Below, one piece after another: positions 1 through 26,813 of a DNA stretch of 64,000 nucleotides. The DNA is from an uncultured Gemmatimonadales bacterium (GTDB taxonomy: Bacteria; Gemmatimonadota; Gemmatimonadetes; Gemmatimonadales; GWC2-71-9). Below the pieces are notes generated by a model. That model did not search any database. It saw nothing but the letters and a program-made list of their open reading frames with translations, and was not told the origin of the DNA. Position 1 is the first letter of the stretch. Each line of letters begins with the position of its first letter. Both the position numbers and the translations under genes were made by a program. The stretch lies in NCBI GenBank assembly GCA_963726955.1, contig CAVSEC010000020.1, positions 6,377-70,376 on the forward strand, read 5' to 3'.

Positions 1-653
1 TCCGAGCGCGCCGTGATCTCCCGCTCCCCCATCGCCTGTTCGGGACTCATGTAGGTCGGCGTACCGAGCGACATCCCGGTCTCGGTCATGCGGCTGCCGC
101 CCGCCTTGCTGGCGGCGAGCGCGATGCCGAAATCGGCGACCAGGGCGCGGCCATCGTGCAGCAGGATGTTCTCCGGCTTGATGTCGCGGTGGATTACGCC
201 GTGGCGGTGGGCGTAGTCGAGCGCACCGGCGACCTCGGTGGCAATCCGCACCGCGTCGGCGATCGGCAGCTGCTGCTCCCGATTCAACCGCTCCCGCAGC
301 GATTCGCCATCGATGACGGGCATGACGTAATACAGGTATTCGGCGATTGGACGGTTAGGCGGTCGGGCGGTTGGGTGGTCGGGCGGTTCGGCTACCGTAC
401 TCGCCACACCCGAATCGAACAGTGGCAGAATGTGGGGGTGCTGCAGGTTCGCCGTGGTCCTGATCTCGGAGAGGAATCGCTCGGCGCCGATCACCGCGGC
501 CAGCTCCGGGCGCAGCACCTTGATCGCGACCTTGCGATCATGCTTCAGGTCCTGGGCGAGGTAGACCGTGGCCATGCCGCCGGCACCTAACTCGCGTTCG
601 ATGCGGTAGCGGCCCTCCAGGGCGGACGTGAGTCGGTGAACGGCGTCCGCCAC
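1..653 (-). CDS. Ser/Thr protein kinase K1 (N-terminal part; runs off the left edge of the window)
   Basis: Hand translation from GTG at 653: [45 protein letters not shown]...HRDIKPEN...DFGIAL...GTPTYMSPEQ. Missing from the ORF track because its stop is outside the window. Confidence 0.95.
   Translation of the reverse strand, partial: MADAVHRLTSALEGRYRIERELGAGGMATVYLAQDLKHDRKVAIKVLRPELAAVIGAERFLSEIRTTANLQHPHILPLFDSGVASTVAEPPDHPTARPPNRPIAEYLYYVMPVIDGESLRERLNREQQLPIADAVRIATEVAGALDYAHRHGVIHRDIKPENILLHDGRALVADFGIALAASKAGGSRMTETGMSLGTPTYMSPEQAMGEREITARS
339..394. repeat. Degenerate 8-bp tandem repeat (7 units) inside the K1 kinase domain
   Basis: + strand units ttcggcga ttggacgg ttaggcgg tcgggcgg ttgggtgg tcgggcgg ttcggcta; encodes the insert AEPPDHPTARPPNRPIAE. 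Confidence 0.85.
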
Positions 654-788
654 GCAGGGGCCTTTGTCCGGATGGTTAAGTGAAGGGGCCTGTCGCCGGA
701 AAGTATGCCCCGACGCCCGGATCGGCTAGCAGGAGCCCGGCGATGACCCTGATGGTCGCGCGCGGGGTGGCCGCGCGCCTCGTTTCAG

Positions 789-2665
789 TCAGTGCGCCTG
801 CAGCACCTGCTCCCAGGCAGGCTTGGCGGGATCGCCGACCACCAGCCGATACGTCCCCGGCGACGGGACGAATTCGACGTCGCGGGTCTCCCCGACGTCG
901 ATCAATTCCACCGATGGCTCCGTGAGCGACTGAGCAGGTGGGAGTTCGGCGCCGTCGCGGGCCAGCCGGCGCCACTCGACCAGCGTGCTGTCGCGGTAGA
1001 TCGCGAACGAAGACTCGTCGGCGACGCCGATATTCACGAAGCGGAACCGATGGGCCACCCCGGCGGCCAGCTCGAGTGGCACGCGGCAGGGAGTCGCCGT
1101 TGACCAGCAGGTGGACCGGGTCCAGCGCGCTGTCCCAGCCGGCCACGAAGATGTGGTCGCGCCGAGGATCGAACCGCCGGCCCGGCTCGAGCACCACGAT
1201 CCCGCCATAGAGGCCCGAGCGTGAGCTGCTCGAGGTCGTTCATGTGGGTGTGGTAGATGAACGTGCCGGCACGGGGCAGCGTCAGGTGCGCCACGAACGA
1301 GTCGCCCGGCTCGATCGAGGGCGCCAGGTGATCGCCCGCTCCGCTCCACCCGGCCACCCCATCGGAGTAGCTCTCCAGTTCGATTCCGTGCCAGTGGATC
1401 GCCGCCGTCTCGGCCAGCCGATTCACCACTACAATATCGGTCGGCTCACCCCGGGTGAGCACCAGCAACGAGCTGCCGGTCTCGACCGAATCCGGGGCCG
1501 GAGGTGTCGCGCCCCGTTGCAGCACGTAACCGAGCGCCCGGGCCGCGCGGCCGCGCCGCCTGCCTTCCTGCACGTAGAGGTGCAACCGACGCGCCCCGCC
1601 GCGGGCCGGCGCCGCGGCGCCGCGCGCCGGGTGCACCACGATGCCCACGACCAGCCCGGCCATGTGCACTCGCGGATCGTGGGCCATCCGGTCGTGACTC
1701 TCTGCCGGCGGCGCGTTGAACCGTGCGGACTCGGGGATCGACGTGGAACCCGATGTGACAGTGGAAAAGCCAGTTCCCCGGGCGCTCGGGCACCCAGGTC
1801 ATGGCCATCGTCTCGATCGGCATCAGGGTCTGGGTGACGGCCATCGGGCGCTTGTCCGGCGGAGGTGTCCTGTCTCGGAGCCCGTCGCTGTAGCCGTCGA
1901 TCCGGTAGTAGAATCCGTGCAGGTGCATCGGATGCGGGCGGGCGGATCCGTTGAGCACTCGCCAGCGGACGCTGTCGCCGACCGTGGCCTCGATCCGCTC
2001 GGTGTAGGGCCACGAGCGGCCGTTGATCGCGAGTGCATTCCGGTAGGTGGTCGAGTCGATGGTGGATCCCCAGATGTTGATCATGAGGATCCGGTCCGGG
2101 GGCGAGCCGCCCGCCGGATCCACAATGAAGGCTCCGGAGGTCGTCTCCCGTTCGTCGTTCATACCCATCACAAGGGAATGCTTGCCGGGCACCGCGTAAT
2201 ACAGGTAGGTCCCCGGCTCACCAGCAGCTGAAGGTGACGGTGGTCGACTCCCCCGGCCGTAGCATCAGGCTGTCGTCCCGAACCGCCGGGTGGGTCACGC
2301 AGGCCATGCACCGCGATCGTGGAATCGGTGAGAAGGTTTCGTACCGAGGCGACGATGATCGTCCCCGTGGGGACCCGGATCAGCGGGGCGGGGATCTCCG
2401 GCGCGTGCCCCACCTCGGCGAACGCTGCGACTTCGATTGCCGGGCCGCTGTCCGCCTCCGGACGCCAGGTGGCCATCCGGACCTCGAGCTTGAGCTCGAG
2501 GGTGTCGCGATGGACCCGGCCGGCCGGCGTCCGGTTGTCGTTCGGGTGCACCAGCGGCAGGCTGTCCCTCGCCGCGCGCTCCGTCGACGGATGGGCGGTC
2601 GGGGGTCGGGAGACGGGAGTGATCAGGAGAGCAGCGGCCGCCATGAATCTCAGTGCATCGGTCAT
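789..2665 (-). CDS. Multicopper oxidase with four cupredoxin domains and a signal peptide (about five single-base insertions, probably sequencing errors)
   Basis: ORF pieces 2168..2665, 1446..2192, 1034..1687, 676..1197 and the end of 789..1349 join into one protein. Motifs HPMHLHG, WLFHCHIGFH, IHWHG and GTFIYHTH; hydrophobic N-terminus. Confidence 0.88.
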
Positions 2666-2680
2666 CCAACGATCCCCTGG

Positions 2681-5364
2681 TTACTGCGCGGTTCGTGCCC
2701 GGAGATCGGTGAACCAGTTCTCCACCTGCACGATCGAAGGCGAGGTCGCCGCCTGGGAGGTGAGCTTGAATCGCATGAACAGGAACCCCCGGCCGCCCGG
2801 GAGCACATCGTAACTCTGGTGGAAGCCAGGATTCATGTACCCGGAAGCGTCGAAGAGGGATCGAAGCCCGGCAACTTCGAACGTTGCCGTCGTGCGCACC
2901 TCGGCAGCAACGAGCTGGGAGGTGCCGTCGATGAAGAACAGCTCCCGTCCGTCGGGCGACCAGCGCGGCTGATTCCCGCCCCCTATAGATACCTGCCACC
3001 GTGCACCCGTCGTACCGGGAAATGGGCGGACGTAGATCTCATTGGTCCCCGACTCATCGGAGGCATACGCCAGCCAGCGACTGTCGGGAGAGATCGCGGG
3101 CTCCAGCTCGGTGAAGCTGCTGGCCACGAGAGAGACCGGCGTCGTATCCCCGCTGGTGCGGACCCCCACGAGGTCGCCGGCGCCGGCGACACCGTTGTCG
3201 GTCCGCAGCACCAGCCAGCGGCCGTCCGGGCTCCAGGTCACCTCCTGCACCTGGCGGTCGAGCCGGGCGAGCAGCCGCTCTGGGGTGCTGCCGTCGGTCT
3301 CCCGGGCGAAGACGCTGCTGGTATTCAGAGAATCCCGGATGAACGCCACGACCTTTCCGTCGGGAGACCACGCCGGCCGCCTGTCCTGACCGCCGAAGCT
3401 GAGGCGGGTGAATGGCCCGCGCTCCAGTTGCTTGACCCAGATGCCGAGTGCGCCGCTCGCGAGCCCTACGCCCACGGCCAGGCGGTGTCCGTCGGGGGAG
3501 AGCGCAGCGGAGTTGAATCCGCCATGCCACATTGAATCGATTGACGTTGCCGTGCCTTCCCGAGTGAGCCGTACCACCTCGACCTCCTGAGCCGCCGACT
3601 CCCCCTGCATGTAGACGAGGGTTCCCGAAGGGGACCAGGTGAGCAGCGGATACCCGATGAAGAGCCGGACCCGCTCGAGCACCGGTACCGCCGCCCCGGT
3701 GACCCGAAGCCCCTTGAGGTCGAAGGGAGCCACCAGCGCCGTACCGTCTCGTCGCACGAAGAACAGCTGCCCGGTCGGGAGATACCACGCGGTGGCCACA
3801 TCGTTGAGCAGGAGGCGCTCCTGCCCGGTGTGCAGATCGAGCAGGTGCACGCTCATCGTCACGCACCCGGAAGCGCACACGGTGAACAGCACGCCCCTGG
3901 CACCGGGGAGCGGGGTCGGCATCGCGAGCCCCAGGCCGGCGAGTGCCGGAGTCTTCAGCAGGCTGGAGACGGTGCCGCCCGCCCCATTTACGCGCGACAG
4001 CTCACTCTGTGTCGGTCCGGTGAAGACGAGGGTACCGTCGTCCAGCCACGTCGCCCCGCCAAAGGGAGCGGCGGCCGAATCGGAGAGGGTGATCGCCGCG
4101 CCCTCGCCGGGCCGGGCCTTCTTGAGGTGCCCGTCGGCGATGAACGAGATCCACTGACCGTCCGGGGAAAATGCCGGGTAGAACCCCCGTTCGGTGCCGG
4201 GGATGGGGACGGCATTCAACTCACCCCGCCGCTTGATCCAGAGCCGCCCATTCTGGATGTCCTCCTTGATCAGCAGGCTCGCGCCGTCAGGCGACAGCGC
4301 CAGGGAGGGCACGTTGATCGCGGGCCGCAGGGCATCACCGAGGGTGATGTACTGCCAGCTCGTGGTCGGGCGGTGCGTCCTGCCTGACCAGGCCCAGAGC
4401 GCGCCCGCCACCGCGACAATCGCAATGGCCCACGGCAGCAGTGTGACCACCCGATCGCGCCGAGTGGCGGGTCCTCGCGCGGCCTCCCGCAGCGGCATGG
4501 TCGTGCCAGCGAGGGTTGAGGCGGTGGCGTGCTGCAGCGCCTCCCCGAACGCCGCGGCGGTGACGAACCGGTCGGCGGGGAGTTTTTCCAGCGCGGTCAG
4601 CACCGCCGACCTCGACATGGGCGGGGATGGTGTGCCGCTGGAGAGTGAGCGAGCGCGGCGGTTCGGTCATCACCCGGCGACGATGGCCTGCGCCGTCGGG
4701 CCGGTGAAGGGCGGCTCGCCGAGCGAGCATCTCGTAGAGCACGCAGCCCAGGGCGTAGACGTCGGAGCGCGCGGTGATCTCGCGCTCGCCCATCGCCTGC
4801 TCGGGCGACATGTAGTGCGGGGTGCCGAGGCGACATCCCCGTCTCGGTCATCCGGCGCGCCGCCGGCCTTGCTGGCCGCGAGCGCGATGCCGAAGTCGGC
4901 GACCAGCGCCCGACCGTCGTGCAGCAGGATGTTCTCGGGCTTGATGTCGCGGTGGATCACGCCGTGGCGATGGGCATAGTCGAGCGGCGCTGGCGACTTC
5001 GGTGGCGATGCGCACCGCATCGGCGATCGGGAGCTGCTTTTCGCGGTTGAGCCGGTCGCGCAGCGATTCGCCCTCGACGAAGGGCATCACGTAGAAGGCG
5101 GAGCCGCTGCGCCTCTCCCGAATCGAGCAGGCCAGGATGTGCGGGTGCTGCAGGTGGCGGTGGTCTTGATCTCGCGCAGGAAGCGCTCGGCGCCGATCAC
5201 CGCCGCCAGTTCCGGCCGGAGCACCTTGATCGCCACCAGCCGATCGTGCTTGAGGTCCTCGGCCAGGTAGACCGTGGCCATGCCGCCCTGCGCCGAGCTC
5301 CCGCTCGATGCGGTAGCGGTCGGCGAGGGCGGCGGCGAGGCGGCGTAGGGCGATCAGCCGCTAT
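2681..5364 (-). CDS. Ser/Thr kinase K2 with TM helix and TolB/PD40 beta-propeller (kinase half frameshifted; start approximate)
   Basis: Kinase fragments [30 protein letters not shown] and [17 protein letters not shown] lie in several frames. ORF 2681..4618 has [20 protein letters not shown] and many SPDG repeats. Confidence 0.88.
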
Positions 5365-5380
5365 GAGCTCCGATGCGTGT

Positions 5381-8363
<2,983 letters not shown>

Positions 8364-8367
8364 GTAC

Positions 8368-11019
8368 TCACCGCTTCCCGCCCCGGTCGTACACCAGACG
8401 GTCGAATACCCCCTCCAGCCCGATCATCGTGGTCAGAGCCGCGCCGCCGCGGATCATGACGAAGTGCTGTCCATCCGGCGAGACATCATACTCGCGGAAG
8501 GTGCCGCTGTTCAGGTAGCGGCCGGTGAAGAGGAGGCGCCGGCCGGTGACCCCGAACGTCGGGGCGGTCACGACCGTCGCCGCCATCAGGCTGTCGCCCG
8601 AGCGATAGAACAGCTCCCGTCCGTTCCGCGACCAGACTGCCTCGCTCCCCCCCTGCAGGGACACCGATACCCTGGCTCCAGGGCCGGGGTAGGGCCGGAC
8701 GTAGACCTCGAAGCGGCCGGCTTCGTCCGACTGGTAGGCCAGCCAGTGTCCGTCCGGGGAGAGGGCGGGGGCGGTTTCACCGAACGGCGCGGGCAGGATG
8801 GTCCGTGCGGACTGCGACGAGTCGAACACCAGGCTCCGGATCCCGTCCCCACCGCTGCCGGACTGCTGGAAGATCACGGTGCGTCCGTCGGGAGTGATAC
8901 TCCCGGCAAAGTGGGATCCGGGACCGACGAGGAGGCTGTCGGAGTGGCCGCTGCCGTCGGCCGCGATCCACCAGAGGTCGTCGTTGCTGGAGTAGATCAG
9001 GCGCCGGCCATTCGGGGTCCAGATGGGCCGATCGCTGATGCCGTTCGTCGTCAGGCGCGACCAGCTTCTCTGCAGCATGTCGAGCACCCAGACGTCGCGG
9101 CTGGAGCCGGACTGCTCGGTGATGTCGAACGCGATGCGGCGCCCATCGGGGGAGAAGCGCGGATTGGCGAACACCTTCGGCTCGGCCACGAGTGGCGTTG
9201 CCAGTCCCGCGCGCGACACCAGCACCAGCTGGCGCGGCGAGGCCCCGCCGGACTGCATGTAGACGATGGACCCGCTGCGGGAGACCACCGCCCGGGCGGA
9301 GTAGCCGTCCGGCTGGGCGACGTCGCGGGCGATGGTCACCGGGGGGCCGGTCGGCCGGACCCGGTCCGCGTCGAAGGGCAGGGCGATCAGCGTGCCGTCC
9401 GCATTGCCGACGACGACGAACCCGGCATCCACCCACTGCGGGGAGAAGCCCGGCTGATCGAAGCGGGTGATCCGACCGCTCCGGAGGTCGAGCGCCGCCA
9501 GGCGGGAGGTTCGGTCATTGAAATCCGCGAAGAGCACGGTGCGGGTGCCCGGAATCAGGATCGGCTCCCGGAATGCCTCTCCCGAACCGGTGTCGGGCCG
9601 CGCGATGACGTAGGGGCGGCCACCTCGGGCCGAGACCGCCATCAGGACTCGCGAGTTCGGATCCCCCGATTCCGAGGAATGGAAGCGAACGGTGTCGTCG
9701 CTGCCCCAATCGTGGGAATAGCCGCCGCAGGAGTCGCAGATGACGACCGGTGCGCCGCCGGCCAGCGGCAGCTTGAGCAGGTGGACCCCCTCGAGATAGC
9801 CGAGCCAGTGGCCGTCGGGGGAGAAGAAGGGCCCGAGGCCCCGTCGCCCACTGGGAACCGGGACCATCTCGATCCGGTCGGCGTAGCGCAGCATCACCCC
9901 GACCCGCGAGTCGTATGCGACCACCGAGCCATCGCGGGTGTAAGCCAGGTCCCAGCGGCTGACGTCGAGCACCGACGCGCTGTCGGGGACGAGCATCTGG
10001 TAGCGCCGCACCACCGGCGGCGTCGACGGCGGCCTCGGGCGCCACAGCACCCATCCTCCCAGTAGACCGAGCCCGAGGAGCAGCAGCCCCAGACCGCCGG
10101 CGACCACCGCGGTGGATCGCGGGCGGAACCCCGGGTCGACGGGTCGCCCGAACCGGTTGGTTCCGACGCCGACGGTGGTGGCATAGCCCACGTTCCCCAG
10201 CGCGGCGGCGAACTCCGCCGCCGTGGCGAAGCGATCGGCGGGGAGCTTCTCCAGCGCCTTGGCCACGGCGGCCGCCACATTAGGCGGCACGTTCTTTCGG
10301 AGTCGGGTGACCGGCTGGGCCTCCTCGGCCACGATCTTCATGATGATCTGCTGGGCCGAGGCGCCCACGTGCGGCGGATTGCCGGTGAGCATCTCGTAGC
10401 AGACACTCGCCAGCGAGTAGATGTCACTGCGCGCCGAGATCTCCTTGTCCGCGGTGGCCTGCTCCGGGCTCATGTAGTGCGGTGTCCCCAGCGACATCCC
10501 GGTCTCGGTCATCCGGCCCCCCGCTGCCGCGCTCAGCGCGAGTGCGATGCCGAAGTCGGCCACCATGGGCCGGCCGTCGTGCAGCAGGATGTTTTCCGGC
10601 TTGATGTCGCGATGGATGACGCCGTGGCGGTGGGCGTAGTCCAGCGCGTCGGCCACCGCGATCGTGATCCGAACCGCTTCCTCGATGCCCAGCTGAGTCT
10701 CCCGGTCGAGCTTGGACCGGAGGGTCTCGCCGTCGATGAACGGCATCACGTAGTAGAGGAAGCTGTCCGCGACACCGGAATCGAAGAGCGGCAGGATGTG
10801 CGGGTGCTGCAGGGCGGCGGTGGTGGTGATCTCCTGCACGAACCGCTCGGCGCCGAGCACCGCTGCGAGCTCGGGCTTGAGCACCTTGATCGCCACCTGG
10901 CGCTTGTGCTTGAGGTCCTCGGCCAGGTAGACCGTGGCCATGCCCCCCCGGCCCAGCTCCCGCTCGAGGCGGTAGCGGTCGGAGAGGGCGGCGGACAGGC
11001 GCTCCGCGGAATTACTCAT
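8368..11019 (-). CDS. Ser/Thr kinase K4 with TM helix and TolB/PD40 beta-propeller
   Basis: Intact 883-aa ORF with all Hanks motifs, TM AVVAGGLGLLLLGLGLLGGWVLW and repeated (F/L)SPDG motifs. Confidence 0.96.
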   Translation of the reverse strand: MSNSAERLSAALSDRYRLERELGRGGMATVYLAEDLKHKRQVAIKVLKPELAAVLGAERFVQEITTTAALQHPHILPLFDSGVADSFLYYVMPFIDGETLRSKLDRETQLGIEEAVRITIAVADALDYAHRHGVIHRDIKPENILLHDGRPMVADFGIALALSAAAGGRMTETGMSLGTPHYMSPEQATADKEISARSDIYSLASVCYEMLTGNPPHVGASAQQIIMKIVAEEAQPVTRLRKNVPPNVAAAVAKALEKLPADRFATAAEFAAALGNVGYATTVGVGTNRFGRPVDPGFRPRSTAVVAGGLGLLLLGLGLLGGWVLWRPRPPSTPPVVRRYQMLVPDSASVLDVSRWDLAYTRDGSVVAYDSRVGVMLRYADRIEMVPVPSGRRGLGPFFSPDGHWLGYLEGVHLLKLPLAGGAPVVICDSCGGYSHDWGSDDTVRFHSSESGDPNSRVLMAVSARGGRPYVIARPDTGSGEAFREPILIPGTRTVLFADFNDRTSRLAALDLRSGRITRFDQPGFSPQWVDAGFVVVGNADGTLIALPFDADRVRPTGPPVTIARDVAQPDGYSARAVVSRSGSIVYMQSGGASPRQLVLVSRAGLATPLVAEPKVFANPRFSPDGRRIAFDITEQSGSSRDVWVLDMLQRSWSRLTTNGISDRPIWTPNGRRLIYSSNDDLWWIAADGSGHSDSLLVGPGSHFAGSITPDGRTVIFQQSGSGGDGIRSLVFDSSQSARTILPAPFGETAPALSPDGHWLAYQSDEAGRFEVYVRPYPGPGARVSVSLQGGSEAVWSRNGRELFYRSGDSLMAATVVTAPTFGVTGRRLLFTGRYLNSGTFREYDVSPDGQHFVMIRGGAALTTMIGLEGVFDRLVYDRGGKR

Positions 11020-17635: not shown

Positions 17636-17814
17636 CACGCCCGCTCGGCGCGGAGCGGTCGATCCTTGAAGAGTGACTTCGACGGCTTGACGCGGCCCGG
17701 GCTGCCCGACTTTCCCGGCAGTCGCTGCCGGTGTCCTCGACGGAGCCTCGGCGTCGACCACGTCACCCGACACCTCCTGCCACGATCAGTGCCCGTGCAC
17801 CGCCGGGTCGAGCC

Positions 17815-20448
17815 TCACCGCGGCAGCTTCTGCTCCAGCAATCTCCTCCAGTTCAGGATGACGTGCGTGGCCAGCGCTTCCGGCCTGACGATCGGCGTAA
17901 CCAGCAGGAAGCGATCCCCATCCGGCGTGACATCATACCCCACCGAACGATTGTCGAGCTGTCCGGCATCCGGCTTCCGGAAGAGCATGGTCGCGGTCCC
18001 GACCTCGCCGGTAGCCGGCTGGAAGGCGACGGCCAGCATCGCGTCACCCTTCCGGTAGACGATCTCACGGCCTCCCCTGGTCCAGCGCGGCTGGCGCCCG
18101 CCATCGGCCGAGACCTGGATCCGGCCGCCACGACCCTCCAGCGGGCGCACGAAGACCTGCGGCTGCTCGTTCTGATTGTACTCCTCATAGGCGATCCACC
18201 TGCCATCCGGCGCGAAGGAGCCGCTGCGCTGGGTGGCGCCCCGATCGTCCACCGGCGTCGAGGCTCCTCCCGCGACCGGCCGAAGCAGCAGGCGGTCGTG
18301 GTTCAGCGTCTCGGTGTAAGCCAGCGTTCGGCCATCGGGACTGATCGACGCCGCGCGCTTGTCGTAGGGGGTCGCGAGCACTTCCGCATCCGGGGCGCTG
18401 GCGTCGATCGGGATGCGGTGCAGGTCGTAGACGGGGTCTTCGAAGGTGTACACAAGGGAGCGACTGTCGGGCAGCCAGTGCGCGTCGAAGGCCGCACCCT
18501 GCGCCCGGGTCAGTTGGGTGAGCACCTTCCGGCTCCGTTCGAAGAGCCAGAGGTCCCGCTTCGGCTCCGTCTGGGTCAGCGCGATCCACTTGCCGTCCGG
18601 CGACAGGCGCGGTTCCGCCCACGAGCCACCCGCGGGTAGTGCCGGCTCCTCGTGGCCGGAGCGGTCGGACCAGACCACCTGGCGGTCGACATTCCAATCC
18701 GACGCCTTGAGGTAGACCATGGTACCGTTGTCGGCGACGGAGAAGCCGGCCGAGCCGTTGTATGGTTGCCAGGCCACACCGTCGATGACCGGCACCGCGG
18801 TCCCGGTGATCCTGAGTTTCGCCGGGTCGAACCGCGTGGCAAAGACGGCGCCATCGCGCGCATACAGCAGGTAGCCGTCGGCGACATACCGGCCGAAGAT
18901 TGCTCCCTCCACGAGGACCGTTCGCCGGCCGGTCGCCAATTCCACCGCCTCAATCCGTGCCCGACTGAACGGCGTGGCATAGCTGGTAAAGATCGCCGTG
19001 CGCCCCCCGGGAAGGACCTGTGGAAACCAGTGCGCAAATTCCCGCCGGGTCGTGTCGAGGGTGGTCAGCTGCGTCGCCATGCCCCCCGACGCCGGGACGG
19101 ACCAGAGCCCGGCGTTGGACTTGGTATAGATGATGGTCGCGTCTTCGAGCGCCCACCCCGATCCCGAGTTGTTGGAGTCGGCCAGTACGGTCGGCGGTCC
19201 GCCGGCCGCCGGGATCTTGTACAGCTTTCCATTCCGCTGATAGGCAATCCAGCGACCATCGTGCGAGAACTCGGGCCATTGGGCGCCTTCCGACCCCGCG
19301 ATGGGGCAGATCACGGTGGAGCCGAGCTCGCGCACGAGGAGGCCATCGACGCCGGCCGAATCCTGGACCGCCTGCACGATGCGCTGCCCATCCAGCGAGA
19401 TGATCACGCCGGCCTGGTCGACGCCCCCATCGCCCAGCCGGAAGGCGAACTCCACCGGCGCCGAGGGCACGCCCTGTGATGTGGCTCCGCGGATCAGCCA
19501 TCCGGCGGCGAGCGCCAGTGCGACGGCGGTGAGTCCCACCGCAATGCGGGCCGGGCGGGGCGCTATGACCGGCGCTCCACGCATGGCCCGGGTGCGGACC
19601 GCGCCACGCGGCGACTCGAACTTGCCATCCAGCGCGGCCGCAAACTCCGCGGCGCTGCCAAAACGGTCGGCCGGGAGCTTCTCCAGCGCGGTGAGCACCG
19701 CCGCCTCGACATGGGCGGGGATGGTGTGCCGCTGGCTGGTCAGCGACCGGGGATGTTCGGTGACGACTCGCGCGACGATAGCCTGCGCCGTCGATCCGGT
19801 AAAAGGCGGATCACCGGTGAGCATCTCGTAGAGCACGCAGCCCAGCGCATAGACATCGCTCCGGGCGGTGATCTCCCGTTCCCCCATCGCCTGTTCGGGG
19901 GACATGTACTGCGGCGTGCCGAGCGACATCCCGGTCTCGGTCATTCGGGAGCCCGCCTTGCTGGCGGCGAGTGCGATGCCGAAATCGGCGACGAGGGCGC
20001 TGCCGTCGTGCAGCAGGATATTCTCGGGCTTGATGTCCCGATGAATCACCCCATGGCGGTGGGCATAGTCGAGCGCGCTGGCAATCTCAGTCGCGATGCG
20101 ACACGCCTCGCCGATCGGCAGCTGCTTCTCCCGTGCCATCCGGTCGCGGAGCGAAATGCCTTCGACGTAGGGCATCACGTAGAAGAGGAAGGAGTCCGCT
20201 TCCCCTGAATCGAAGAGCGGCAGGATGTGCGGGTGCTGCAGATTCGCGGTGGTCTTGATTTCGGCGAGGAATCGCTCGGCACCGATCACGGCGGCGAGCT
20301 CCGGCCGCAGCACCTTGATCGCGACCTGGCGGTCGTGCTTGAGGTCCTGTGCGAGATAGACGGTCGCCATGCCGCCCTGGCCCAGCTCCCGCTCGAGTAG
20401 ATAGCGGTCGGCGAGGGCGGTGGTCAGGCGGTCGATCGCGTCCGTCAC
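17815..20448 (-). CDS. Ser/Thr kinase K7 with TM helix and TolB/PD40 beta-propeller
   Basis: Intact 877-aa ORF with Hanks motifs and TM IAVGLTAVALALAAGWLI. GTGA overlap with the K8 stop. Confidence 0.96.
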   Translation of the reverse strand: MTDAIDRLTTALADRYLLERELGQGGMATVYLAQDLKHDRQVAIKVLRPELAAVIGAERFLAEIKTTANLQHPHILPLFDSGEADSFLFYVMPYVEGISLRDRMAREKQLPIGEACRIATEIASALDYAHRHGVIHRDIKPENILLHDGSALVADFGIALAASKAGSRMTETGMSLGTPQYMSPEQAMGEREITARSDVYALGCVLYEMLTGDPPFTGSTAQAIVARVVTEHPRSLTSQRHTIPAHVEAAVLTALEKLPADRFGSAAEFAAALDGKFESPRGAVRTRAMRGAPVIAPRPARIAVGLTAVALALAAGWLIRGATSQGVPSAPVEFAFRLGDGGVDQAGVIISLDGQRIVQAVQDSAGVDGLLVRELGSTVICPIAGSEGAQWPEFSHDGRWIAYQRNGKLYKIPAAGGPPTVLADSNNSGSGWALEDATIIYTKSNAGLWSVPASGGMATQLTTLDTTRREFAHWFPQVLPGGRTAIFTSYATPFSRARIEAVELATGRRTVLVEGAIFGRYVADGYLLYARDGAVFATRFDPAKLRITGTAVPVIDGVAWQPYNGSAGFSVADNGTMVYLKASDWNVDRQVVWSDRSGHEEPALPAGGSWAEPRLSPDGKWIALTQTEPKRDLWLFERSRKVLTQLTRAQGAAFDAHWLPDSRSLVYTFEDPVYDLHRIPIDASAPDAEVLATPYDKRAASISPDGRTLAYTETLNHDRLLLRPVAGGASTPVDDRGATQRSGSFAPDGRWIAYEEYNQNEQPQVFVRPLEGRGGRIQVSADGGRQPRWTRGGREIVYRKGDAMLAVAFQPATGEVGTATMLFRKPDAGQLDNRSVGYDVTPDGDRFLLVTPIVRPEALATHVILNWRRLLEQKLPR

Positions 20449-23162
20449 TTGCCACGCCCGGTACGTTGCCGCAGCTCCTGGATCCAGTTCACCACCATCA
20501 CCAGGTTTCGGTTCTCTTCGACCGGCCGGATCATGACGAAGCTTCCGTCCGGCGCCGCGTCATAGTTCGGATGGTACAGGTCGGTCGCGAAGGGACCTTC
20601 GAACAGCGTCGCGCGTCCGGTCACGGCCAGCGCCGGCAACGTGGCGATCGTCGCCGCCATCACCTTGCTGCCCGCACGATAAAAGAGTCGTTTACCGTTC
20701 CGCTCCCAGAGCGGCTCCCCGCCGCCGCCGGTGGACACCGGGGTTCGTCCGCCAGCTCCCGACAGCGCACGCACATAGACCTCTTCCCGCCCTGATTCGT
20801 TCGACACGTAGGCCACCCATTTCCCATCCGGTGAAACCCTCGGCTCCTTGTCGTCATTGATATTCACCAGGAAGGGCACCGGCTTCTGATCCCCGGTGAG
20901 CGGCAGCAGGTAGATATCACGATTGTTGTCAGGCGTATCGACCCGATACATGACCGCCTGGCCATCCGGAGTAAACACGCCTTCGCGAATCGGGTTCGGG
21001 TCCTCCCGCAACATCCTCGCGTTGGCACTGCCATCGGCCGGCTGCCACCAGAGCGCATTGGCCGGCGCGCGAGATGAGGTGTACATCACCCGGCGACCGT
21101 CGGGTGACCACTCGGGCCGGTTGTTGTACCCCTCGCGAGTCAGCCGCTCTGTCGTGTGATCGCCGAGGTCGGTGATCCAGATGTCCGCCCCGGAGGCTCC
21201 CTGAACCTCGAGCGCGATGCGGCGACCATCGGGTGACAAGCGGGGATGCAGGTATGCCTGGACCGAATCGAGGAGCACCCGGGACCCGCCGTGCGGGTCC
21301 ACACTTACCAGCTGGCTGGCGGTGCCGCCTCGCTGGTACACCAGCGAACCGCTCGCCGAGAGCGCGATGGGAGCATTCCACGCGGACGAGGGCACCGCAA
21401 CACTGTCGGATATCTGGAGCGGGGCCCCAACCCGCAAGCTATTCCGGTCAAACGGCACCGCCATGAGCGCGCCGTCGCCGCGTACGTAAAGCAGGAGGTC
21501 ATCCACGAGACCGATGGCGCGGGCGCCCCGAAGTTCCGGGAACACGGTGGACTTGCCGTTCCCGGCCTGAACCACGCCCATCCTCAGGTCCGCGTTGCCG
21601 GCGACGGTGCTGCTGTAGAAGACCAGCCGGCCGTTGTCCGCCGATCGGGGCGCCAGTTGCAGGCGCTCGCCGCTGGCGCTGTCCAACCGGGAAAACTGGA
21701 CCGGCTCTCCGCCATCGGAGGATACCCGCCAGAGGCCGCGCCCCTCAGAGTAGGTTCCCCTGGCGAAGACGATCTCCCGGTCGGAGGTCCAGGTAAGCCC
21801 GCCACCGACGCTGGCGCTATTGTCCAGCGGGCAGATTGTAGTGAGGGCGCTTCCGTCGACGGCGATCTTCTTGAGCTTGCCGTCGGCAGAACGAAATGCG
21901 ACCCACCGGCCGTCGGGCGAGAACTCCGGATTGAACCCGCCCTCGGTCCCCGGCAAGGCCCGGGACGCAAGTTGATCGAAGCTTCTGAGGTACAGCATCC
22001 AGCTGCCGCTCACCGGGGATCCCGCGAACACCGCCAGCCGGCCGTCGGGTGACAGGGCAACCTGAGACCCGACACCCGCCACTGGAAACGCGATCCTGGT
22101 GCCGGGTGCCGGTTGCAACTCGAAGCGGACGACGGCGGCCGGAACCACGGGCGAACCGGCGTGCAGCCAGCCCCAGGCCGCCACAATCGCCGCGAGGCCA
22201 AACGCCACTGCCCAAGGGAGCGGTGATCTCACGCTCCACTTGCTCACCGGCGCCATCGCCGCAGCGGTCGTGCGGGGCCGGGTCGCTCCGCCCTGCCCTT
22301 CGAGCGCCGCGACGAAGGCGGCGGCGGTCGGCCACCGGTCTGCCGGGAGCTTGGCGAGGGCAACCAGCACGGCATCTTCGATCGCCTCCGGCACAGTGTC
22401 GCGGAACTTCGACATCGGCACCGGCTTTTCGGTCATCACCTTGGCCACGATCGCCTGTGCCGTCGGGCCGGTGAAGGGCGGCTCTCCCAGCAGCATCTCA
22501 TACGTCACGCAGCCGAGGGCGTACACATCCGAGCGCGCGGTGATCTCGCGCTCGCCCATCGCCTGCTCGGGGCTCATGTAGGTCGGGGTACCGAGCGACA
22601 TGCCGGTCTCCGTCATCCGCGCACCGCCCGCCTTGCTGGCCGCCAGCGCGATACCGAAGTCGGCCACGAGCGCTCGGCCGTCGTGCAGCAGGATGTTCTC
22701 CGGCTTGATGTCGCGATGAATCACGTTGTGCCGGTGGGCGTAGTCGAGCGCGCCGGCCACTTCGGTGGCGATGCGCACCGCGTCCGCAATGGGCAGCTGC
22801 TTTTCCCGCTTCAGGCGGTCGCGCAGTGATTCGCCGTCGATGAAGGGCATCACGTAATACAGATATTGGGCGATTGGGCGATTGGGCGATTCGGCTGACG
22901 TACTCGCCACCCCCGAATCGAAGAGCGGCAGGATTTGCGGGTGCTGCAGATTGGCCGTGGTCTTGATCTCGCTGAGGAACCGCTCGGCGCCGATCACCGC
23001 CGCGAGTTCGGGGCGCAGCACCTTGATCGCGACCTGACGATCGTGCTTCAGGTCGTGGGCCAGGTACACCGTGGCCATGCCGCCCTGGCCCAGCTCCCGC
23101 TCGAGGCGGTAGCGGTCACCCAGCGCAGTGGCCAGCGCAGCCATTGTCGATCCAGCGGTCAT
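20445..23162 (-). CDS. Ser/Thr kinase K8 with TM helix and TolB/PD40 beta-propeller
   Basis: Intact 905-aa ORF with Hanks motifs and TM LPWAVAFGLAAIVAAWGWL. ATGA overlap with the phosphatase stop. Confidence 0.96.
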   Translation of the reverse strand: MTAGSTMAALATALGDRYRLERELGQGGMATVYLAHDLKHDRQVAIKVLRPELAAVIGAERFLSEIKTTANLQHPQILPLFDSGVASTSAESPNRPIAQYLYYVMPFIDGESLRDRLKREKQLPIADAVRIATEVAGALDYAHRHNVIHRDIKPENILLHDGRALVADFGIALAASKAGGARMTETGMSLGTPTYMSPEQAMGEREITARSDVYALGCVTYEMLLGEPPFTGPTAQAIVAKVMTEKPVPMSKFRDTVPEAIEDAVLVALAKLPADRWPTAAAFVAALEGQGGATRPRTTAAAMAPVSKWSVRSPLPWAVAFGLAAIVAAWGWLHAGSPVVPAAVVRFELQPAPGTRIAFPVAGVGSQVALSPDGRLAVFAGSPVSGSWMLYLRSFDQLASRALPGTEGGFNPEFSPDGRWVAFRSADGKLKKIAVDGSALTTICPLDNSASVGGGLTWTSDREIVFARGTYSEGRGLWRVSSDGGEPVQFSRLDSASGERLQLAPRSADNGRLVFYSSTVAGNADLRMGVVQAGNGKSTVFPELRGARAIGLVDDLLLYVRGDGALMAVPFDRNSLRVGAPLQISDSVAVPSSAWNAPIALSASGSLVYQRGGTASQLVSVDPHGGSRVLLDSVQAYLHPRLSPDGRRIALEVQGASGADIWITDLGDHTTERLTREGYNNRPEWSPDGRRVMYTSSRAPANALWWQPADGSANARMLREDPNPIREGVFTPDGQAVMYRVDTPDNNRDIYLLPLTGDQKPVPFLVNINDDKEPRVSPDGKWVAYVSNESGREEVYVRALSGAGGRTPVSTGGGGEPLWERNGKRLFYRAGSKVMAATIATLPALAVTGRATLFEGPFATDLYHPNYDAAPDGSFVMIRPVEENRNLVMVVNWIQELRQRTGRGK
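22866..22897. repeat. 8-bp tandem repeat (4 units) inside the K8 kinase domain
   Basis: ttgggcga ttgggcga ttgggcga ttcggctg; encodes AESPNRPIAQ. Confidence 0.88.
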
Positions 23163-24085
23163 GCCGCTCCGCCGTGACGGCGGGCCCGCGCCACGAGGAC
23201 GGTGATGTTGTCACTGCCACCGTCTGCCAACGCCAGGTCCAGCAGGCTATGACAGAGCTGCTCTGACGAGGTCATGGCCCTGATCTCGTCGGCGATCCGC
23301 GCATCGGAGACATGCTTGGTCAGGCCGTCGCTGCAGAGCAGCAGCACCAGTCCGGGAAGATCGAGCCCGATACGGGTGATCTCCGGCTTGGCCTCTTCCC
23401 CGCCGATCGCACTGACGAGCACATGGGTGAACGGGGAACTCGCCATCCGCTCCGGTGGCAGCGCGCCACGGTCCACCAGGTCCTGCGCCATGGTCTGGTC
23501 GCGGGTGACCTGGCGGAGTCCGTCATCGGTGTAGACATAGCATCGGCTGTCGCCCACCTGCACCGCGTAGGCCCACGGCCACACCGCGGTCACCAGGGTG
23601 AGCGTCGTCGCCATCTTGCGGAATTCGGGGTGAGCCGTCGCCGCGGTGCGTACCGCACCGTGCGCCTCAAGCACCGCCGCCTTCAGCGCGTCGAGATAGA
23701 TCTGTTCCTGTCGGCCGCCTGCCGCATGGTAGCAGCGCATCGTGGAGGTGAGATAGCTGGTGATCGTCTCGGCCGTCAGCCGGCTCGCGCCGCCACCTCC
23801 GCCCCCGCTCGCCACACCGTCGGCGACCAGCATGATCGTCGCGAGGCGCTCGCCGCGGAGTGGCAGCTGCTCGGGCTCGGGCAGACTGGTGCCGTGCACG
23901 ACGACTTGCGGGTGCACGGTACAGAGGAGAAAGTGATCCTCGTTCTGCTTCCGTACTTTCCCCGGATGCGTGAGGCCGAAGAGATCCAGCTCGTCATCGA
24001 GCGGCTTCTTCCCCGGCTCGATCGGGATGGTGGCCGTATGAAGTTCGGTGGAGCCCGGGGTGGTGGGATGCCAGAGGGGGGTCAT
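23159..24085 (-). CDS. PP2C/PPM-family Ser/Thr protein phosphatase
   Basis: Motifs GKVRKQNED, LVADG, ATTLT, VGDSRCY, LCSDGL and GGSDNIT. Confidence 0.95.
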   Translation of the reverse strand: MTPLWHPTTPGSTELHTATIPIEPGKKPLDDELDLFGLTHPGKVRKQNEDHFLLCTVHPQVVVHGTSLPEPEQLPLRGERLATIMLVADGVASGGGGGGASRLTAETITSYLTSTMRCYHAAGGRQEQIYLDALKAAVLEAHGAVRTAATAHPEFRKMATTLTLVTAVWPWAYAVQVGDSRCYVYTDDGLRQVTRDQTMAQDLVDRGALPPERMASSPFTHVLVSAIGGEEAKPEITRIGLDLPGLVLLLCSDGLTKHVSDARIADEIRAMTSSEQLCHSLLDLALADGGSDNITVLVARARRHGGAA

Positions 24086-24146
24086 GTTTGGAATCCTCCC
24101 GTTGTCGAGCGGTCTGGTCCACTGTGGGACCTGTCACGGCGCGCGG

Positions 24147-26813
24147 TCACAGTCCGTCAGTCTCCATCACCCACACATCGCTCTGCCGATCATCAATCGT
24201 GAAATAGATCCGCCGGGAGCCGAGCGACCAGGTCGGCCGGTACGACGGCCCGAGTGGATCGTCCAGCCTGACGAGCTGGCGTGCTGTCCCTCCCGCGGCG
24301 GGGATCGACCAGAAGGAAGCGATCCCGCGAGCGTCCAGGCCCTTGAAGTAGATGGTGCGGCCATCCAGACCCCAGAATCCGCTCGAGGTGCTCGGCTGCC
24401 CCGTTCGCGCCGGATCCACGAGGATGCGCACCGGCCCCGAGTCCACGGGGACCACGCCGAGGGAGCCATGGCCGTCGAGACTGCTGGAGAACGCCAGGAA
24501 TCGTCCATCGACAGACCAGGCCGCGAGGAGTCCGTATGTCAGGCGCCGAACCGGTGCCGACCAGCCGCCATCCGGGCGGCGTCGCACGACCCAGATGCCG
24601 CCCCTTGCCGTGAAATCCGTGAAGGCCAGGGCCGACCCATCCGGCGACCAGTCCGGCGCGGCCTCCTGCATCGGCGAGCTGGTGACCTGCTGTCGTGGTC
24701 CACCGTCGAGCGGCATCACGTAGACATCCCGCGATCCGAGGCGCCAGGAGTGAAATGCCACCTCGCGGCCGTCCGGGGAGGGCGCCGGCGCGAAGTCGTC
24801 GCTCGAGTCCGCGGTGAGACGTTCCGGTTCCCCTCTCGGCAAGCGAAGGCGGTAGAGGTCGGAGTGTCCGCCGAGATTCGAGTCGTAGTAGAGCCACTGC
24901 TCGTCGGCCGAGAGCCGCATCTCTTCCACCACCTGGCTTCCGCGCGTGACCTGGACCGCCTGGGACTCGGAGAGCGGTCCGCCGGTCGGGAGCGGGAGCG
25001 ACCAGATGTTTCCCGTCGCACTGAACAGGTTGTAGGCGAGGTGTCGCCCGTCGTGCGACAGCGAGATGGATTGCGCGCCGAGCCCGACGGTCAATCGGGT
25101 CGGCCGCTCTTCGGGGCGTCCATCGCGACCGATGCGCATGGCAAAGATGTCCCGCGGCCCCTCCCGGTCCGAGATGAAGTAGAGCCGGCGCCCATCGGGC
25201 GACCAGGTCGGCGCCTGATTGAGGGAGGTACTGTCGGTGGCCGTCACCAGCGTCCGATCTGCCACTCGGCAGATCACGATGCGGCTCGGAGAGAGGTTTC
25301 CGAAGGTGGTCCCCACCGCCAGGTACCGTGCATTCCCCGAGGCGCAGGCGAGCAGCGTGCCGTCGGGTGACCAGGTGCATTCCGCCGGCTCGAGCAGGCC
25401 GGCGAGCAGCCGGACGGTGCCGTCGCCGGCCCGCAGGAAGAGCGAGTCGCCCGCGACGTACGCGATGGTCGATCCGTCCGGCGACCACTCGGCGGAGCTC
25501 ACCGGATTTCCGCGTCCCGCCGGAATCTCCGGATGCGCGGGGCCGCCCGAGGCCGGTGCACTGAAGACGCCGCCATGACTCAGGAAGAGGATGCGGGTCC
25601 CATCCGGAGACCAGGTGGGAAGGCTCTGCACCTCGGTGCTGTCGTCGGTGATCGGGATCTGCCGCCCCCCGGCCACCGGCCGCACGTAGATCCGCGTCAC
25701 GACCGAGGTGCCGGCGGCGTAGGCCACGCTCCGGCCATCGGGCGAGATGGCGGGCTGGATCTCGAGCCCCGGGTCGGAGGTGACCTTGTGCGCCGCCCCG
25801 AAGCTCCCTGCCGGCGTGGCCGTGCTCCCGCGGAGCCAGCCCCAGGCCGCGAGGGTACTGACGATGCCGAGCAGCGCGCCGAGGACGATCACCGGCCCGC
25901 GCAGGGAAGCGCTGGCACCGGACGCCGCGGCCCGTTGCGTGGCGGATGCCGTGCCCACCATCGCCTCCGCGAATTCCGCGGCGCTGCCCCATCGGTCGGC
26001 CGGCAACTTCTCCAGCGCGGTCATCACCGCATGGTCGACCGCCGGCGGCACGCTCCGCCGGATCTGTCCCGGCGGCGCCGCCTCGGCGGTCATCACCTTG
26101 GCCACGATCGCCTGCGCGGTCGGCCCGGTGAATGGCGGCTCGCCCAACAGCATCTCGTACGTCACACAGCCGAGGGCGTAGATATCCGAACGGGCGGTGA
26201 TCTCCCGCTCCCCCATCGCCTGCTCCGGGCTCATGTAGTGCGGGGTGCCGAGTGACATCCCGGTCTCGGTCATCCGGACGCCACCGGCCTTGCTCGCCGC
26301 CAGTGCGATGCCGAAGTCGGCGACCAGCGCCTGGCCGTCGTGCAGCAGGATGTTCTCCGGCTTGATGTCGCGGTGGATCACACCATGGCGGTGCGCGTAG
26401 TCGAGGGCACTCGCGACTTCGCTGGCGATACGCACCGCATCGGCGATGGGAAGCTGCTTCTCCCGCGTCAGGCGATCGCGGAGTGATTCTCCCTCGATGA
26501 AGGGCATGACGTAGTACAGATATTGGGCGATTGCGCGATTGGGCGATTCGGCTGCCGTACTCGCCACCCCCGAATCGAAGAGCGGCAGGATATGCGGGTG
26601 CTGCAGGTTGGCGGTGGTCCTGATCTCGGAGAGGAACCGCTCGGCGCCGATCACCGCCGCGAGCTCCGGCCGGAGCACCTTGATCGCGACCTGGCGATCG
26701 TGCTTCAGGTCATGGGCGAGGTAGACCGTGGCCATGCCGCCCTGACCGAGCTCCCGCTCGATGCGGTAGCGGTCGGCGAGGGCGACGGCGAGAGGTGTGG
26801 TGAGCGGATTCAC
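24147..26813 (-). CDS. Ser/Thr kinase K9 with TM helix and TolB/PD40 beta-propeller
   Basis: ORF 24147..27236; the likely start is GTG at 26813 ([23 protein letters not shown]). TM VIVLGALLGIVSTLAAWGWL; WSPDG repeats. Confidence 0.95.
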   Translation of the reverse strand: MNPLTTPLAVALADRYRIERELGQGGMATVYLAHDLKHDRQVAIKVLRPELAAVIGAERFLSEIRTTANLQHPHILPLFDSGVASTAAESPNRAIAQYLYYVMPFIEGESLRDRLTREKQLPIADAVRIASEVASALDYAHRHGVIHRDIKPENILLHDGQALVADFGIALAASKAGGVRMTETGMSLGTPHYMSPEQAMGEREITARSDIYALGCVTYEMLLGEPPFTGPTAQAIVAKVMTAEAAPPGQIRRSVPPAVDHAVMTALEKLPADRWGSAAEFAEAMVGTASATQRAAASGASASLRGPVIVLGALLGIVSTLAAWGWLRGSTATPAGSFGAAHKVTSDPGLEIQPAISPDGRSVAYAAGTSVVTRIYVRPVAGGRQIPITDDSTEVQSLPTWSPDGTRILFLSHGGVFSAPASGGPAHPEIPAGRGNPVSSAEWSPDGSTIAYVAGDSLFLRAGDGTVRLLAGLLEPAECTWSPDGTLLACASGNARYLAVGTTFGNLSPSRIVICRVADRTLVTATDSTSLNQAPTWSPDGRRLYFISDREGPRDIFAMRIGRDGRPEERPTRLTVGLGAQSISLSHDGRHLAYNLFSATGNIWSLPLPTGGPLSESQAVQVTRGSQVVEEMRLSADEQWLYYDSNLGGHSDLYRLRLPRGEPERLTADSSDDFAPAPSPDGREVAFHSWRLGSRDVYVMPLDGGPRQQVTSSPMQEAAPDWSPDGSALAFTDFTARGGIWVVRRRPDGGWSAPVRRLTYGLLAAWSVDGRFLAFSSSLDGHGSLGVVPVDSGPVRILVDPARTGQPSTSSGFWGLDGRTIYFKGLDARGIASFWSIPAAGGTARQLVRLDDPLGPSYRPTWSLGSRRIYFTIDDRQSDVWVMETDGL
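26523..26554. repeat. 8-bp tandem repeat (4 units) inside the K9 kinase domain
   Basis: ttgggcga ttgcgcga ttgggcga ttcggctg; encodes AESPNRAIAQ. Confidence 0.85.

Follow-up and report, generated by a model that had tools for sequence, protein, structure and literature searches.

The genes at the left end of a 64,000-nt stretch of DNA from an uncultured Gemmatimonadales bacterium raise the question of how neighboring receptors can share nearly the same kinase while carrying very different sensors. The stretch, referred to here as the window, covers positions 6377-70376 of contig C20 of G000, a draft genome that comprises 20 contigs and totals 3.66 Mb, and has a GC content of about 68%. The initial annotation of the window described nine co-oriented receptor-like Ser/Thr kinase genes (K1 to K9) in positions 1-26813 and compared them with the receptor kinase clusters of plants. 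Comparison with related genomes, all of which are metagenome bins, indicates that the kinase and sensor modules have separate histories and have been exchanged between genes by recombination. The best explanation of the locus as a whole is an array of receptor kinases with PknB-like signaling and with recombination between kinases and sensors, and its probability is put at roughly 0.62.

The array proteins have the receptor-like architecture that was annotated, with a kinase inside, one transmembrane (TM) helix, and a large variable outer domain. Nine minus-strand loci bearing Pkinase domains were found by Pfam and by tblastn with K5. Seven of the nine genes are intact (K1 and K4 to K9), while K2 and K3 are broken. 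A typical member has a cytoplasmic RD kinase of about 275 amino acids, a TM helix, and a periplasmic sensor of about 545-580 amino acids, which is in most cases a pair of tandem six-bladed PD40 propellers. K1, K2, and K4 to K9 each have a single hydrophobic helix, which lies near residues 290-330 or, in K2, at the equivalent position. The inside and outside positions are predicted from the order of the domains and from the need of the kinase for ATP. The Pkinase family (PF00069) matches K1 and K4 to K9 with 119-173 bits (cut-off 31.7), K3 partially with 74 bits, and K2 in fragments only. In a DNA alignment the HRD, DFG, and SPE motifs of RD kinases are present in nine of nine loci. The catalytic motifs of Hanks-type (eukaryotic-like) kinases (the glycine loop, the VAIK lysine, HRD with its N, DFG, and GTPxYMSPEQ) occur in all nine loci and in a consensus of 78 sequences, and a conserved T-E-T precedes GTPxYMSPEQ. 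The contrast between similar kinases and divergent sensors was also borne out. Identity between kinase domains is 59-81% with a mean of 68.6% (21 pairs, seven intact genes), and identity between ectodomains is 17-38% with a mean of 24.6% (28 pairs, including the K2 ectodomain).

The ectodomains of K1, K2, and K4 to K9 are 545-580 residues long and have PD40 matches. The K5 ectodomain is modeled as two TolB-like six-bladed propellers. The model, built from a 78-row alignment, is all-beta with pLDDT 94 and pTM 0.90. Its residues 253-515 superpose on the propellers of at least seven TolB entries with Z scores of 26-27 and a root mean square deviation (rmsd) of 2.7-2.8 A over 245-247 residues. Over its full length the ectodomain aligns to LRP6, which also has six-bladed propellers in tandem, with a Z score of about 22; the rmsd is large here because the angle between the two propellers differs. 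The positions that are nearly invariant among 78 ectodomain sequences are structural motifs of the SPDG type.

Not all of the sensors are propellers, in contrast to the annotation. The ectodomain of the K3 ortholog has no PD40 match and resembles TPR proteins in a feature search (score 0.97), so the K3-type ectodomain is possibly TPR-like, which is to be taken as a lead only. Some array members have TPR-type sensors instead of propellers, and the arrays of relatives include TPR sensors and combinations of TolB_N with TPR. The TolB N-terminal domain was found in K0, the kinase to the left of K1 (8.7e-6), and in 18B, an array member of a relative (4.2e-7). Homologs are listed with the Pfam families PF26549 and PF26550.

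Histories of the kinase and sensor modules

Arrays homologous to that of the window surround the same multicopper oxidase gene in two relatives, G018 with nine kinases and G003 with six. Their genes are designated 18x and 03x, respectively (18H is P0002 and 03e is P0003). The ectodomain of K5 is 87% identical to that of 18H and 79% identical to that of 03e, and the corresponding kinases are 69% and 71% identical. With the database protein P0005, K5 has 60% identity in the ectodomain and 91% in the kinase. K4 and K5 are 33% identical in the ectodomain and 85% in the kinase, and by the kinase and ectodomain trees K4 has a K5-type kinase module on an ectodomain from outside the K5 family. Two members of one relative's array, 18F and 18I, are 34% identical in the ectodomain and 93% in the kinase.

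Phylogenetic trees of the two modules disagree. The 47 rows used for them were 22 proteins of the arrays and 25 from the database, where 28 candidates had been considered and three without the anchoring motif were dropped. In the ectodomain tree K5, P0001, 18H, 03e, P0004, and P0007 form a clade with a Shimodaira-Hasegawa approximate likelihood ratio (SH-aLRT) support of 100. In the kinase tree K5 groups with K4 in a clade of 26 members (SH-aLRT 99), and 18H, 03e, and P0007 fall outside this clade. Forcing the six-member ectodomain clade onto the kinase data is rejected, with a difference in log-likelihood of 171 and p = 4.6e-5 in the approximately unbiased (AU) test. An earlier AU test with 22 rows, in which K4 nests beside K5, was uninformative and is superseded by this one.

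Synonymous divergence (dS) gives the same picture, and because it is measured at synonymous sites, it is independent of selection on the proteins. For K5 and 18H, dS is 0.82 in the kinase and 0.24 in the ectodomain, and for 18F and 18I it is 0.19 in the kinase and 0.84 in the ectodomain. The background dS between G000 and G018 is about 0.75, taken from the whole gene for a cyclic glucan synthase (2568 codons). A second background estimate, from the open reading frame (ORF) at 47998-49092, was discarded; the frame is probably wrong, with 50% amino acid identity and pS smaller than pN.

The changes in identity along the genes are sharp and occur at recurrent places. Sliding-window identity steps at nt 770-810 from 72% to 91% for K5 and 18H, from 96% to 45% for 18F and 18I, and from 83% to 45% for K4 and K5. 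Along the window, identity to G018 is about 73% in the kinase DNA of K5, about 88% from 12830 to 10930, and about 64% further into the kinase of K4. Another junction is located within the conserved 5' part of the kinase; in 03c the initial ~60 nt are those of 18E, and the sequence is that of 18D from about nt 150 onward. A common kinase (85-97% nucleotide identity) is found in 18G and 03d, which have unrelated sensors (TPR in one and PD40 in the other). Breakpoints thus recur in two places, one where the kinase domain finishes on its 3' side (about nt 770-840) and the other in its conserved 5' portion (about nt 30-150). In G019, which belongs to another family, the ortholog of the K7 ectodomain sits on a K4/K5-type kinase (81% identity to K4 and 71% to K7), and exchange of modules therefore spans families of the order. 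The G019 gene with the K7-type sensor (L104, G019:C1:1679000-1685000) adjoins a divergently oriented kinase.

Old tandem duplications without recombination, followed by constraint on the kinases and drift of the ectodomains, could also give similar kinases and divergent sensors. The ectodomain lineages are indeed old, the ratio of nonsynonymous to synonymous divergence (dN/dS) is very low in the kinases, and K6 and its orthologs are concordant (kinase 69-70%, ectodomain 55%). However, constraint cannot make an ectodomain more alike than its kinase, as in K5 and 18H, and it cannot lower synonymous divergence in the kinase only, as in 18F and 18I. The incongruent trees and the sharp, recurrent steps in identity also argue for recombination, and duplication without it is very improbable.

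Selection was estimated gene-wide between pairs of orthologs. In five of six ortholog pairs the kinase dN/dS is 0.03-0.09, and in 18E and 03a it is 0.21. In the ectodomain the ratio spans 0.045-0.31, with the largest value in the K5 lineage, and it is below 1 in every pair. The ectodomains are, by these sequence estimates, under relaxed purifying selection and not under gene-wide positive selection. Of the pattern expected in the initial annotation, purifying selection on the kinase was found and diversifying selection on the ectodomain was not.

The content of the arrays differs even between the closest relatives. Thirty relatives were searched with K4, K5, K6, and K7 (18 from its genus and a further 12 from its order), and an ectodomain identity of at least 50% was taken to denote an ortholog. 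The K5 ectodomain has orthologs in two of the thirty, G018 (87%) and G003 (79%), and the best match elsewhere is 36% or less. K4 has one ortholog (G009, 58%), K6 has four (55-58%, two of them partial), and K7 has one, that of G019, at about 49-50%. The window, G018, and G003 also differ from one another in which genes their arrays contain and in how these are ordered. Fixed one-to-one syntenic orthologs under uniform purifying selection, named in the initial annotation as grounds for refuting it, were not found for these four genes; orthologs are sparse and dN/dS is not uniform. The parallel drawn with plant receptor kinase clusters is backed by this turnover between close relatives and by recombination between members. 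Overall the earlier interpretation stands with respect to the architecture, the constant kinase and variable sensor, and the plant parallel, while diversifying selection was not supported. Relatives of the array proteins occur across Gemmatimonadota and Acidobacteriota, with at least 8000 scored candidates.

The layout of the array may itself promote the exchange of modules. The genes are arranged head to tail, so that each sensor segment lies between its own kinase upstream and the kinase of the next gene downstream. Since the sensor segments are flanked by conserved kinase DNA, homologous recombination replaces kinases by gene conversion, swaps or replaces sensors, and reorders, adds, or deletes genes. 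The outcome is a kinase held constant by strong purifying selection and recombination, joined to old and divergent sensors that differ between close relatives. A more speculative proposal, and a tentative one, is that the head-to-tail array is a cassette exchanger. Recombination within the array and with DNA from related species would swap sensors on a kinase chassis with one phospho-output, and this would be selected for by changing external ligands.

Proposed signaling and comparison with known systems

By analogy with characterized proteins, the sensor would bind a ligand in the periplasm; as with TolB propellers, this would probably be a protein or peptide. Binding would lead to dimerization and autophosphorylation of the activation loop, as in kinases of the PknB class. 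The nearly alike kinase modules may phosphorylate a common set of cytoplasmic targets; a shared output is argued for because the modules are near-identical and interchangeable. The PP2C-type phosphatase encoded between K9 and K8 would reset the phosphorylation state. This protein is a PP2C by its match to PP2C_2 (PF13672; 48.2 bits, cut-off 24), and its score for the Stp1/IreP equivalog (NF033484) is below that of the family (157 bits, cut-off 230). The array genes are probably operonic, judging from their overlapping and abutting ends. A scan of positions 8000-27900 for consensus promoters and terminators gave three promoter-like sites (1.2 expected) and six terminator-like sites (5.6 expected), a yield no higher than chance, and none of them was informatively placed.

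An alternative to a repertoire directed at non-self or neighbors is that the propeller kinases sense the state of the envelope by binding endogenous proteins of the periplasm, for example Pal-like lipoproteins and peptidoglycan-associated or misfolded proteins, with different partners for different members. The second propeller of K5 superposes on TolB with a Z score of 27, K0 and 18B have the TolB N-terminal domain, and the ectodomains are under purifying selection. Periplasmic or envelope genes are found among the kinases, namely those for the multicopper oxidase, a CopM/DUF305 protein, and a lipoprotein. The copper-related neighbors and the TolB-like fold leave a role in sensing the envelope state possible. 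On the other hand, a common fold is no proof of a common ligand, the identity to TolB is 15-18%, and the family scores are below the cut-off. Rapid turnover of sensors between close relatives also fits changing external targets better than housekeeping partners, and own-partner sensing is possible but rather unlikely. The oxidase gene is kept in the array of the window as well as in those of G018 and G003, and together with the CopM-like gene it suggests a possible link to copper or envelope stress.

The array proteins resemble several known systems but do not fall into an established family. No array protein scores above the cut-off of any NCBIfam family. The PknB/Stk1 kinases with PASTA domains likewise have an RD Hanks kinase, one TM helix, an extracytoplasmic sensor, and an adjacent PP2C gene, which in their case is of the Stp1 type. 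Their model, PknB_PASTA_kin (NF033483), gives 296-300 bits (cut-off 450) with the kinase part alone aligned, and no PASTA domains were found among the Pfam matches of the array proteins. The array also has many paralogs instead of one essential gene. TolB of the Tol-Pal system shares the six-bladed PD40 fold with the second propeller of the K5 model. In contrast to TolB, the array proteins have two tandem propellers fused to a kinase through the TM helix, and K4 to K9 are without the TolB N-terminal domain. The TolB model (TIGR02800) gives 234.7 bits for K6 and 26.9 bits for K5, both below the cut-off of 343.15. In the PADLOC defense library, the anti-phage kinases PD-T4-6 and mad6 match the kinases with up to 322 bits over residues ~10-290, which is the kinase domain only, and the PP2C and the lipoprotein have no match in this library.

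Clusters of receptor-like kinases (RLK) and nucleotide-binding leucine-rich repeat receptors (NLR) in plants are tandem, combine constant signaling modules with variable binding modules, undergo unequal recombination or gene conversion, and show presence/absence variation. Compared with these clusters, the bacterial array is of independent origin, its kinases belong to another clade, its sensors are propellers or TPR rather than leucine-rich repeats, and its genes are probably operonic.

The closest bacterial counterparts are Ser/Thr kinases that span the membrane and carry WD40 or TPR domains on the periplasmic side. According to PMC11032199, these are expanded in Planctomycetota ('Ca. Uabimicrobium amorphum' and Gemmataceae) and in Myxobacteria (Perez et al. 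2008, as cited there), and species-specific clades of kinase domains are attributed there to 'duplication and/or recombination'. The kinases described there share a cytoplasmic Pkinase domain, a single TM helix, a periplasmic propeller or TPR sensor, and lineage-specific expansion with some tandem duplicates. The array proteins fit this receptor kinase plan, with an N-terminal Pkinase domain, a single TM helix, and a C-terminal propeller or TPR. They differ from the proteins described there in coming from Gemmatimonadales, with relatives in Acidobacteriota, and in having paired TolB/PD40 six-bladed propellers instead of WD40 arrays. They also differ in forming long co-oriented rows, and module exchange is read directly from dS, breakpoints, and the AU test here, while it is suggested there. 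A literature search that excluded subscription journals and supplements found no paper on this family of Gemmatimonadota and Acidobacteriota and none demonstrating module exchange or gene conversion among bacterial receptor kinases.

Several points weigh against a signaling array with exchange of modules. Ligand binding, dimerization, common substrates, and the role of the PP2C are all proposed by analogy. Contig C20 has no FHA or other gene for a substrate; none of the ten FHA matches in the genome falls on it. Clusters of FHA, kinase, and PP2C genes occur elsewhere in G000 (C5:186-190 kb and C10:133-135 kb), and FHA partners are therefore present in the genome, though not beside the array. 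No PP2C gene turned up in the array contigs retrieved from G018 and G003, and such a gene is therefore not a constant member of these arrays. Entries from the database were chosen for the trees by full-length similarity to K5, which biases the combinations seen, and dS values near 1 obtained with the NG86 method are saturated. The event in the K5 lineage could have been either replacement of the kinase or import of the sensor segment. In its own genome the kinase closest to that of 18H is its array neighbor 18D, with 92% protein identity and a dS of 0.68, and the conversion is therefore old or its donor is gone. Chimeric joins within repeated kinase DNA could mimic some of the rearrangements, and sequence quality is poor over the leftmost 8.4 kb of the window. 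A collinear copy of C20:497-7101, 87% identical and covering 6.6 kb of the K-1/K0/K1 segment, is found at C16:80353-86926. This copy is itself frameshifted and stops at a contig end that matches window position 725. It could be a segmental duplication or come from a second strain or species within the bin, and contiguity is therefore more doubtful before about 8.4 kb than after it.

An assembly artefact, in which dispersed paralogs or co-occurring strains were joined through repeated kinase DNA, would account for an apparent array or mosaic. G000 is a bin with 59% completeness (contamination 0.29%), positions 653-8363 are ridden with indels, and the second copy on C16 ends at a contig end. Public read runs were searched for positions 2600-8400 as a check, and none contained this stretch (best share of sampled words 0.10). 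However, positions 8368-26813 hold seven intact minus-strand genes of 308-905 amino acids (six kinases and the PP2C) with precise overlaps of stop and start codons, and only one intact plus-strand gene interrupts them. Adjacent kinase-propeller genes are also found in relatives assembled into 4-10 contigs (for example G020:C1:327-334 kb and G021:C4:487-505 kb); because these assemblies are independent, the arrays are not an artefact of the G000 assembly. The kinase DNA of paralogs is 70-85% identical, which is low for collapse of an assembly graph. Cross-assembly is further argued against because the identities of the mosaic partners are graded (79-97%) and never 100%. An artefact is on this evidence improbable, and exchange between the genes of a real array is the preferred reading.

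Gene content and contiguity of the array

The array is longer and less regular than was annotated. The nine co-oriented loci and the junctions were confirmed, but K2 and K3 are not intact, the row is not uninterrupted, not all sensors are propellers, and nine is not the full count. When the contig to the left of the window and the kinase-TPR gene at 30255-32981 are included, there are 12 kinase loci within the first 39 kb of the contig. K1 runs off the left edge, as noted earlier, and its remainder lies to the left on the contig (Table 1). It overlaps by 4 nt with K0, which encodes a kinase-TolB_N-TPR protein of 1167 amino acids with no clear TM helix, and a broken kinase gene lies beyond K0 at the left end of the contig. 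Across G000 as a whole, Pfam gives 61 Pkinase matches and tblastn gives 48 segments that are 120 amino acids or longer, corresponding to roughly 45 genes. Smaller clusters of kinase genes are on C11 and C16.

The ORF list and the sequence agree exactly with the annotated GTGA overlaps at 13632-13635 and 20445-20448, the ATGA overlap at 23159-23162, and the gaps of 4 nt between K4 and K3 and 9 nt between K5 and K4. The ATGA overlap had been listed among the kinase junctions, but at this place K8 adjoins the PP2C gene. Three non-kinase genes lie inside the array, those for a multicopper oxidase, an MFS transporter, and the PP2C. The plus-strand MFS gene splits the array and the frameshifted oxidase gene separates K1 from K2, so the row is not as tight as described. 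The MFS protein matches named efflux families below their cut-offs only. The protein encoded at 26987-29068 has a lipobox-like N-terminus, a weak 'choice-of-anchor B' match (60 bits, cut-off 100), and no Pfam family.

Table 1. Genes and other features of the kinase array and the rest of the window (window coordinates unless a contig is given)
Feature	Position	Strand	Description
K1	1-653	-	First 217 codons of a 901-aa kinase-TM-propeller gene; Pkinase E 2.5e-34
K1, full gene	C20:4324-7029	-	Pkinase 8.9e-45; weak PD40 and Gmad1 propeller matches; TM at residue 319
Multicopper oxidase gene	795-2665	-	Broken by at least 4 frame changes; Cu-oxidase_3 and Cu-oxidase_2 matches on fragments and ortholog
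K2	2681-5380 (upper limit approximate)	-	Ectodomain ORF 2681-4666 intact with TM helix; PD40 6.8e-26
K3	5385-8363 (lower limit approximate)	-	Ortholog of a 989-aa kinase; partial Pkinase match
K4	8368-11019	-	883 aa, intact; Pkinase 1.7e-46; TM at residue 304; PD40 4.2e-23, double propeller
K5 sensor cassette tract	10930-12830	-	Begins where the K5 kinase domain ends, covers the ectodomain, stop codon, and spacer, and reaches ~90 nt into K4
K5	11029-13635	-	868 aa, intact; Pkinase 3.7e-49; TM helix; two TolB-like six-bladed propellers (modeled)
K6	13632-16343	-	880-903 aa depending on start (TTG 16274 or ATG 16343), intact; Pkinase 3.8e-49; TM helix; PD40 2.3e-47
MFS transporter gene	16358-17635	+	MFS_1 2.4e-54; intact; divides the array into two same-strand blocks
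K7	17815-20448	-	877 aa, intact; Pkinase 9e-51; TM at residue 302; PD40 1.5e-13
K8	20445-23162	-	905 aa, intact; Pkinase 1e-47; TM at residue 315; PD40 1.4e-23
PP2C-type Ser/Thr phosphatase	23159-24085	-	308 aa; PP2C_2 1.3e-12; stop overlaps K8 start (ATGA)
K9	24147-26813	-	888 aa, intact; Pkinase 6.7e-48; TM at residue 308; PD40 1.6e-37
Putative lipoprotein	26987-29068	-	~690 aa; directly upstream of K9, same strand
DUF305/CopM-like protein	29052-29807	-	Upstream of K9
Kinase-TPR gene	30255-32981	-	Right of the array, same strand
Selenium-binding-protein-56-like gene	33692-35026	+	
Beta-lactamase-fold protein gene	35946-37091	-	
Cyclic beta-1,2-glucan synthase-like gene	37221-46029	+	~2900 aa; GH94 supersandwich and catalytic domains
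HtrA-type protease	62095-63609	+	PDZ domains

Neither K2 nor K3, annotated as paralogs of the array, is an open frame as assembled. Read-through translation and DNA alignment of the kinase part of K2 (~4530-5380) show about eight single-base indels and in-frame stops relative to all paralogs, and its 661-codon ectodomain frame is open. K3 has about ten frame changes over its whole length compared with its intact 989-aa ortholog 18E (tblastn residues 1-987 over 8363-5390). The tblastn match of the oxidase ortholog crosses frames -3/-1/-2/-3/-1/-2; this ortholog is an intact, secreted protein of 617 amino acids encoded inside the arrays of G018 (L016:5889-7742) and G003.

The breaks in K2, K3, and the oxidase gene are most likely a local assembly error, with moderate confidence, because the whole draft genome carries such indels. 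A frame model based on GC3 finds 2291 same-strand frame switches across the 3.1 Mb of coding sequence in G000, of which 785 have no stop codon within 90 nt. These 785 switches form patches that are found on most contigs, such as the start of C17 and 13-50 kb of C5. The G000 bin appears to hold many indel-rich segments, which inflate counts of pseudogenes. In the same model every gene at 8368-33674 is in an unbroken frame, minus-strand coding is continuous from 33674 down to 17805, and 653-8363 is chaotic. The cyclic glucan synthase gene is in two overlapping frames near 41774-42641 and its G018 ortholog is in a single frame, so this split is probably another assembly indel.

True pseudogenes, in an array that evolves by birth and death and has a decaying segment, are a less likely cause of the breaks. 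More than 20 frame-breaking single-base indels fall at 653-8363 and none at 8368-33674, the orthologs of K3 and the oxidase are intact in both G018 and G003, and relics would be expected from the high turnover of array members. Yet the frame switches without a nearby stop are spread in clusters through the genome, one being in the cyclic glucan synthase gene, and about a dozen further kinase genes of G000 are likewise split. An open 661-codon ectodomain frame in K2 is also unlikely under neutral decay, given about eight indels in the 5' third of the gene. Contigs from four metagenome runs matched the window only as fragments of related organisms, deep over conserved kinase words and thin elsewhere, with one-base differences at several of the indel sites in K2 and K3. 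Because they derive from the kinases of other organisms, they are uninformative about assembly error or pseudogenes, as well as about contiguity and habitat. The nearest named homologs are from Gemmatimonadales and Gemmatimonadaceae bins.

Significance of the arrays

Expanded bacterial receptor kinases with periplasmic repeats are a kind that is already known, and the mosaic evolution of kinase and sensor, as deduced from the sequences, is the new result. Propeller receptor Ser/Thr kinases number in the thousands in Gemmatimonadota and Acidobacteriota, which are abundant and little-studied soil phyla. Module exchange at fixed junctions would account for the 'species-specific kinase clades' of other kinase-rich bacteria. 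It also carries a warning that trees of kinase domains do not report the orthology of receptors. The natural junctions suggest sites at which chimeric receptors could be made in order to de-orphanize sensors. Overall the arrays provide a bacterial test case for the turnover of receptor repertoires. If the array is indeed a cassette exchanger, it would be a bacterial counterpart of the evolution of plant RLK and NLR clusters, giving these organisms a fast-changing repertoire of periplasmic receptors.

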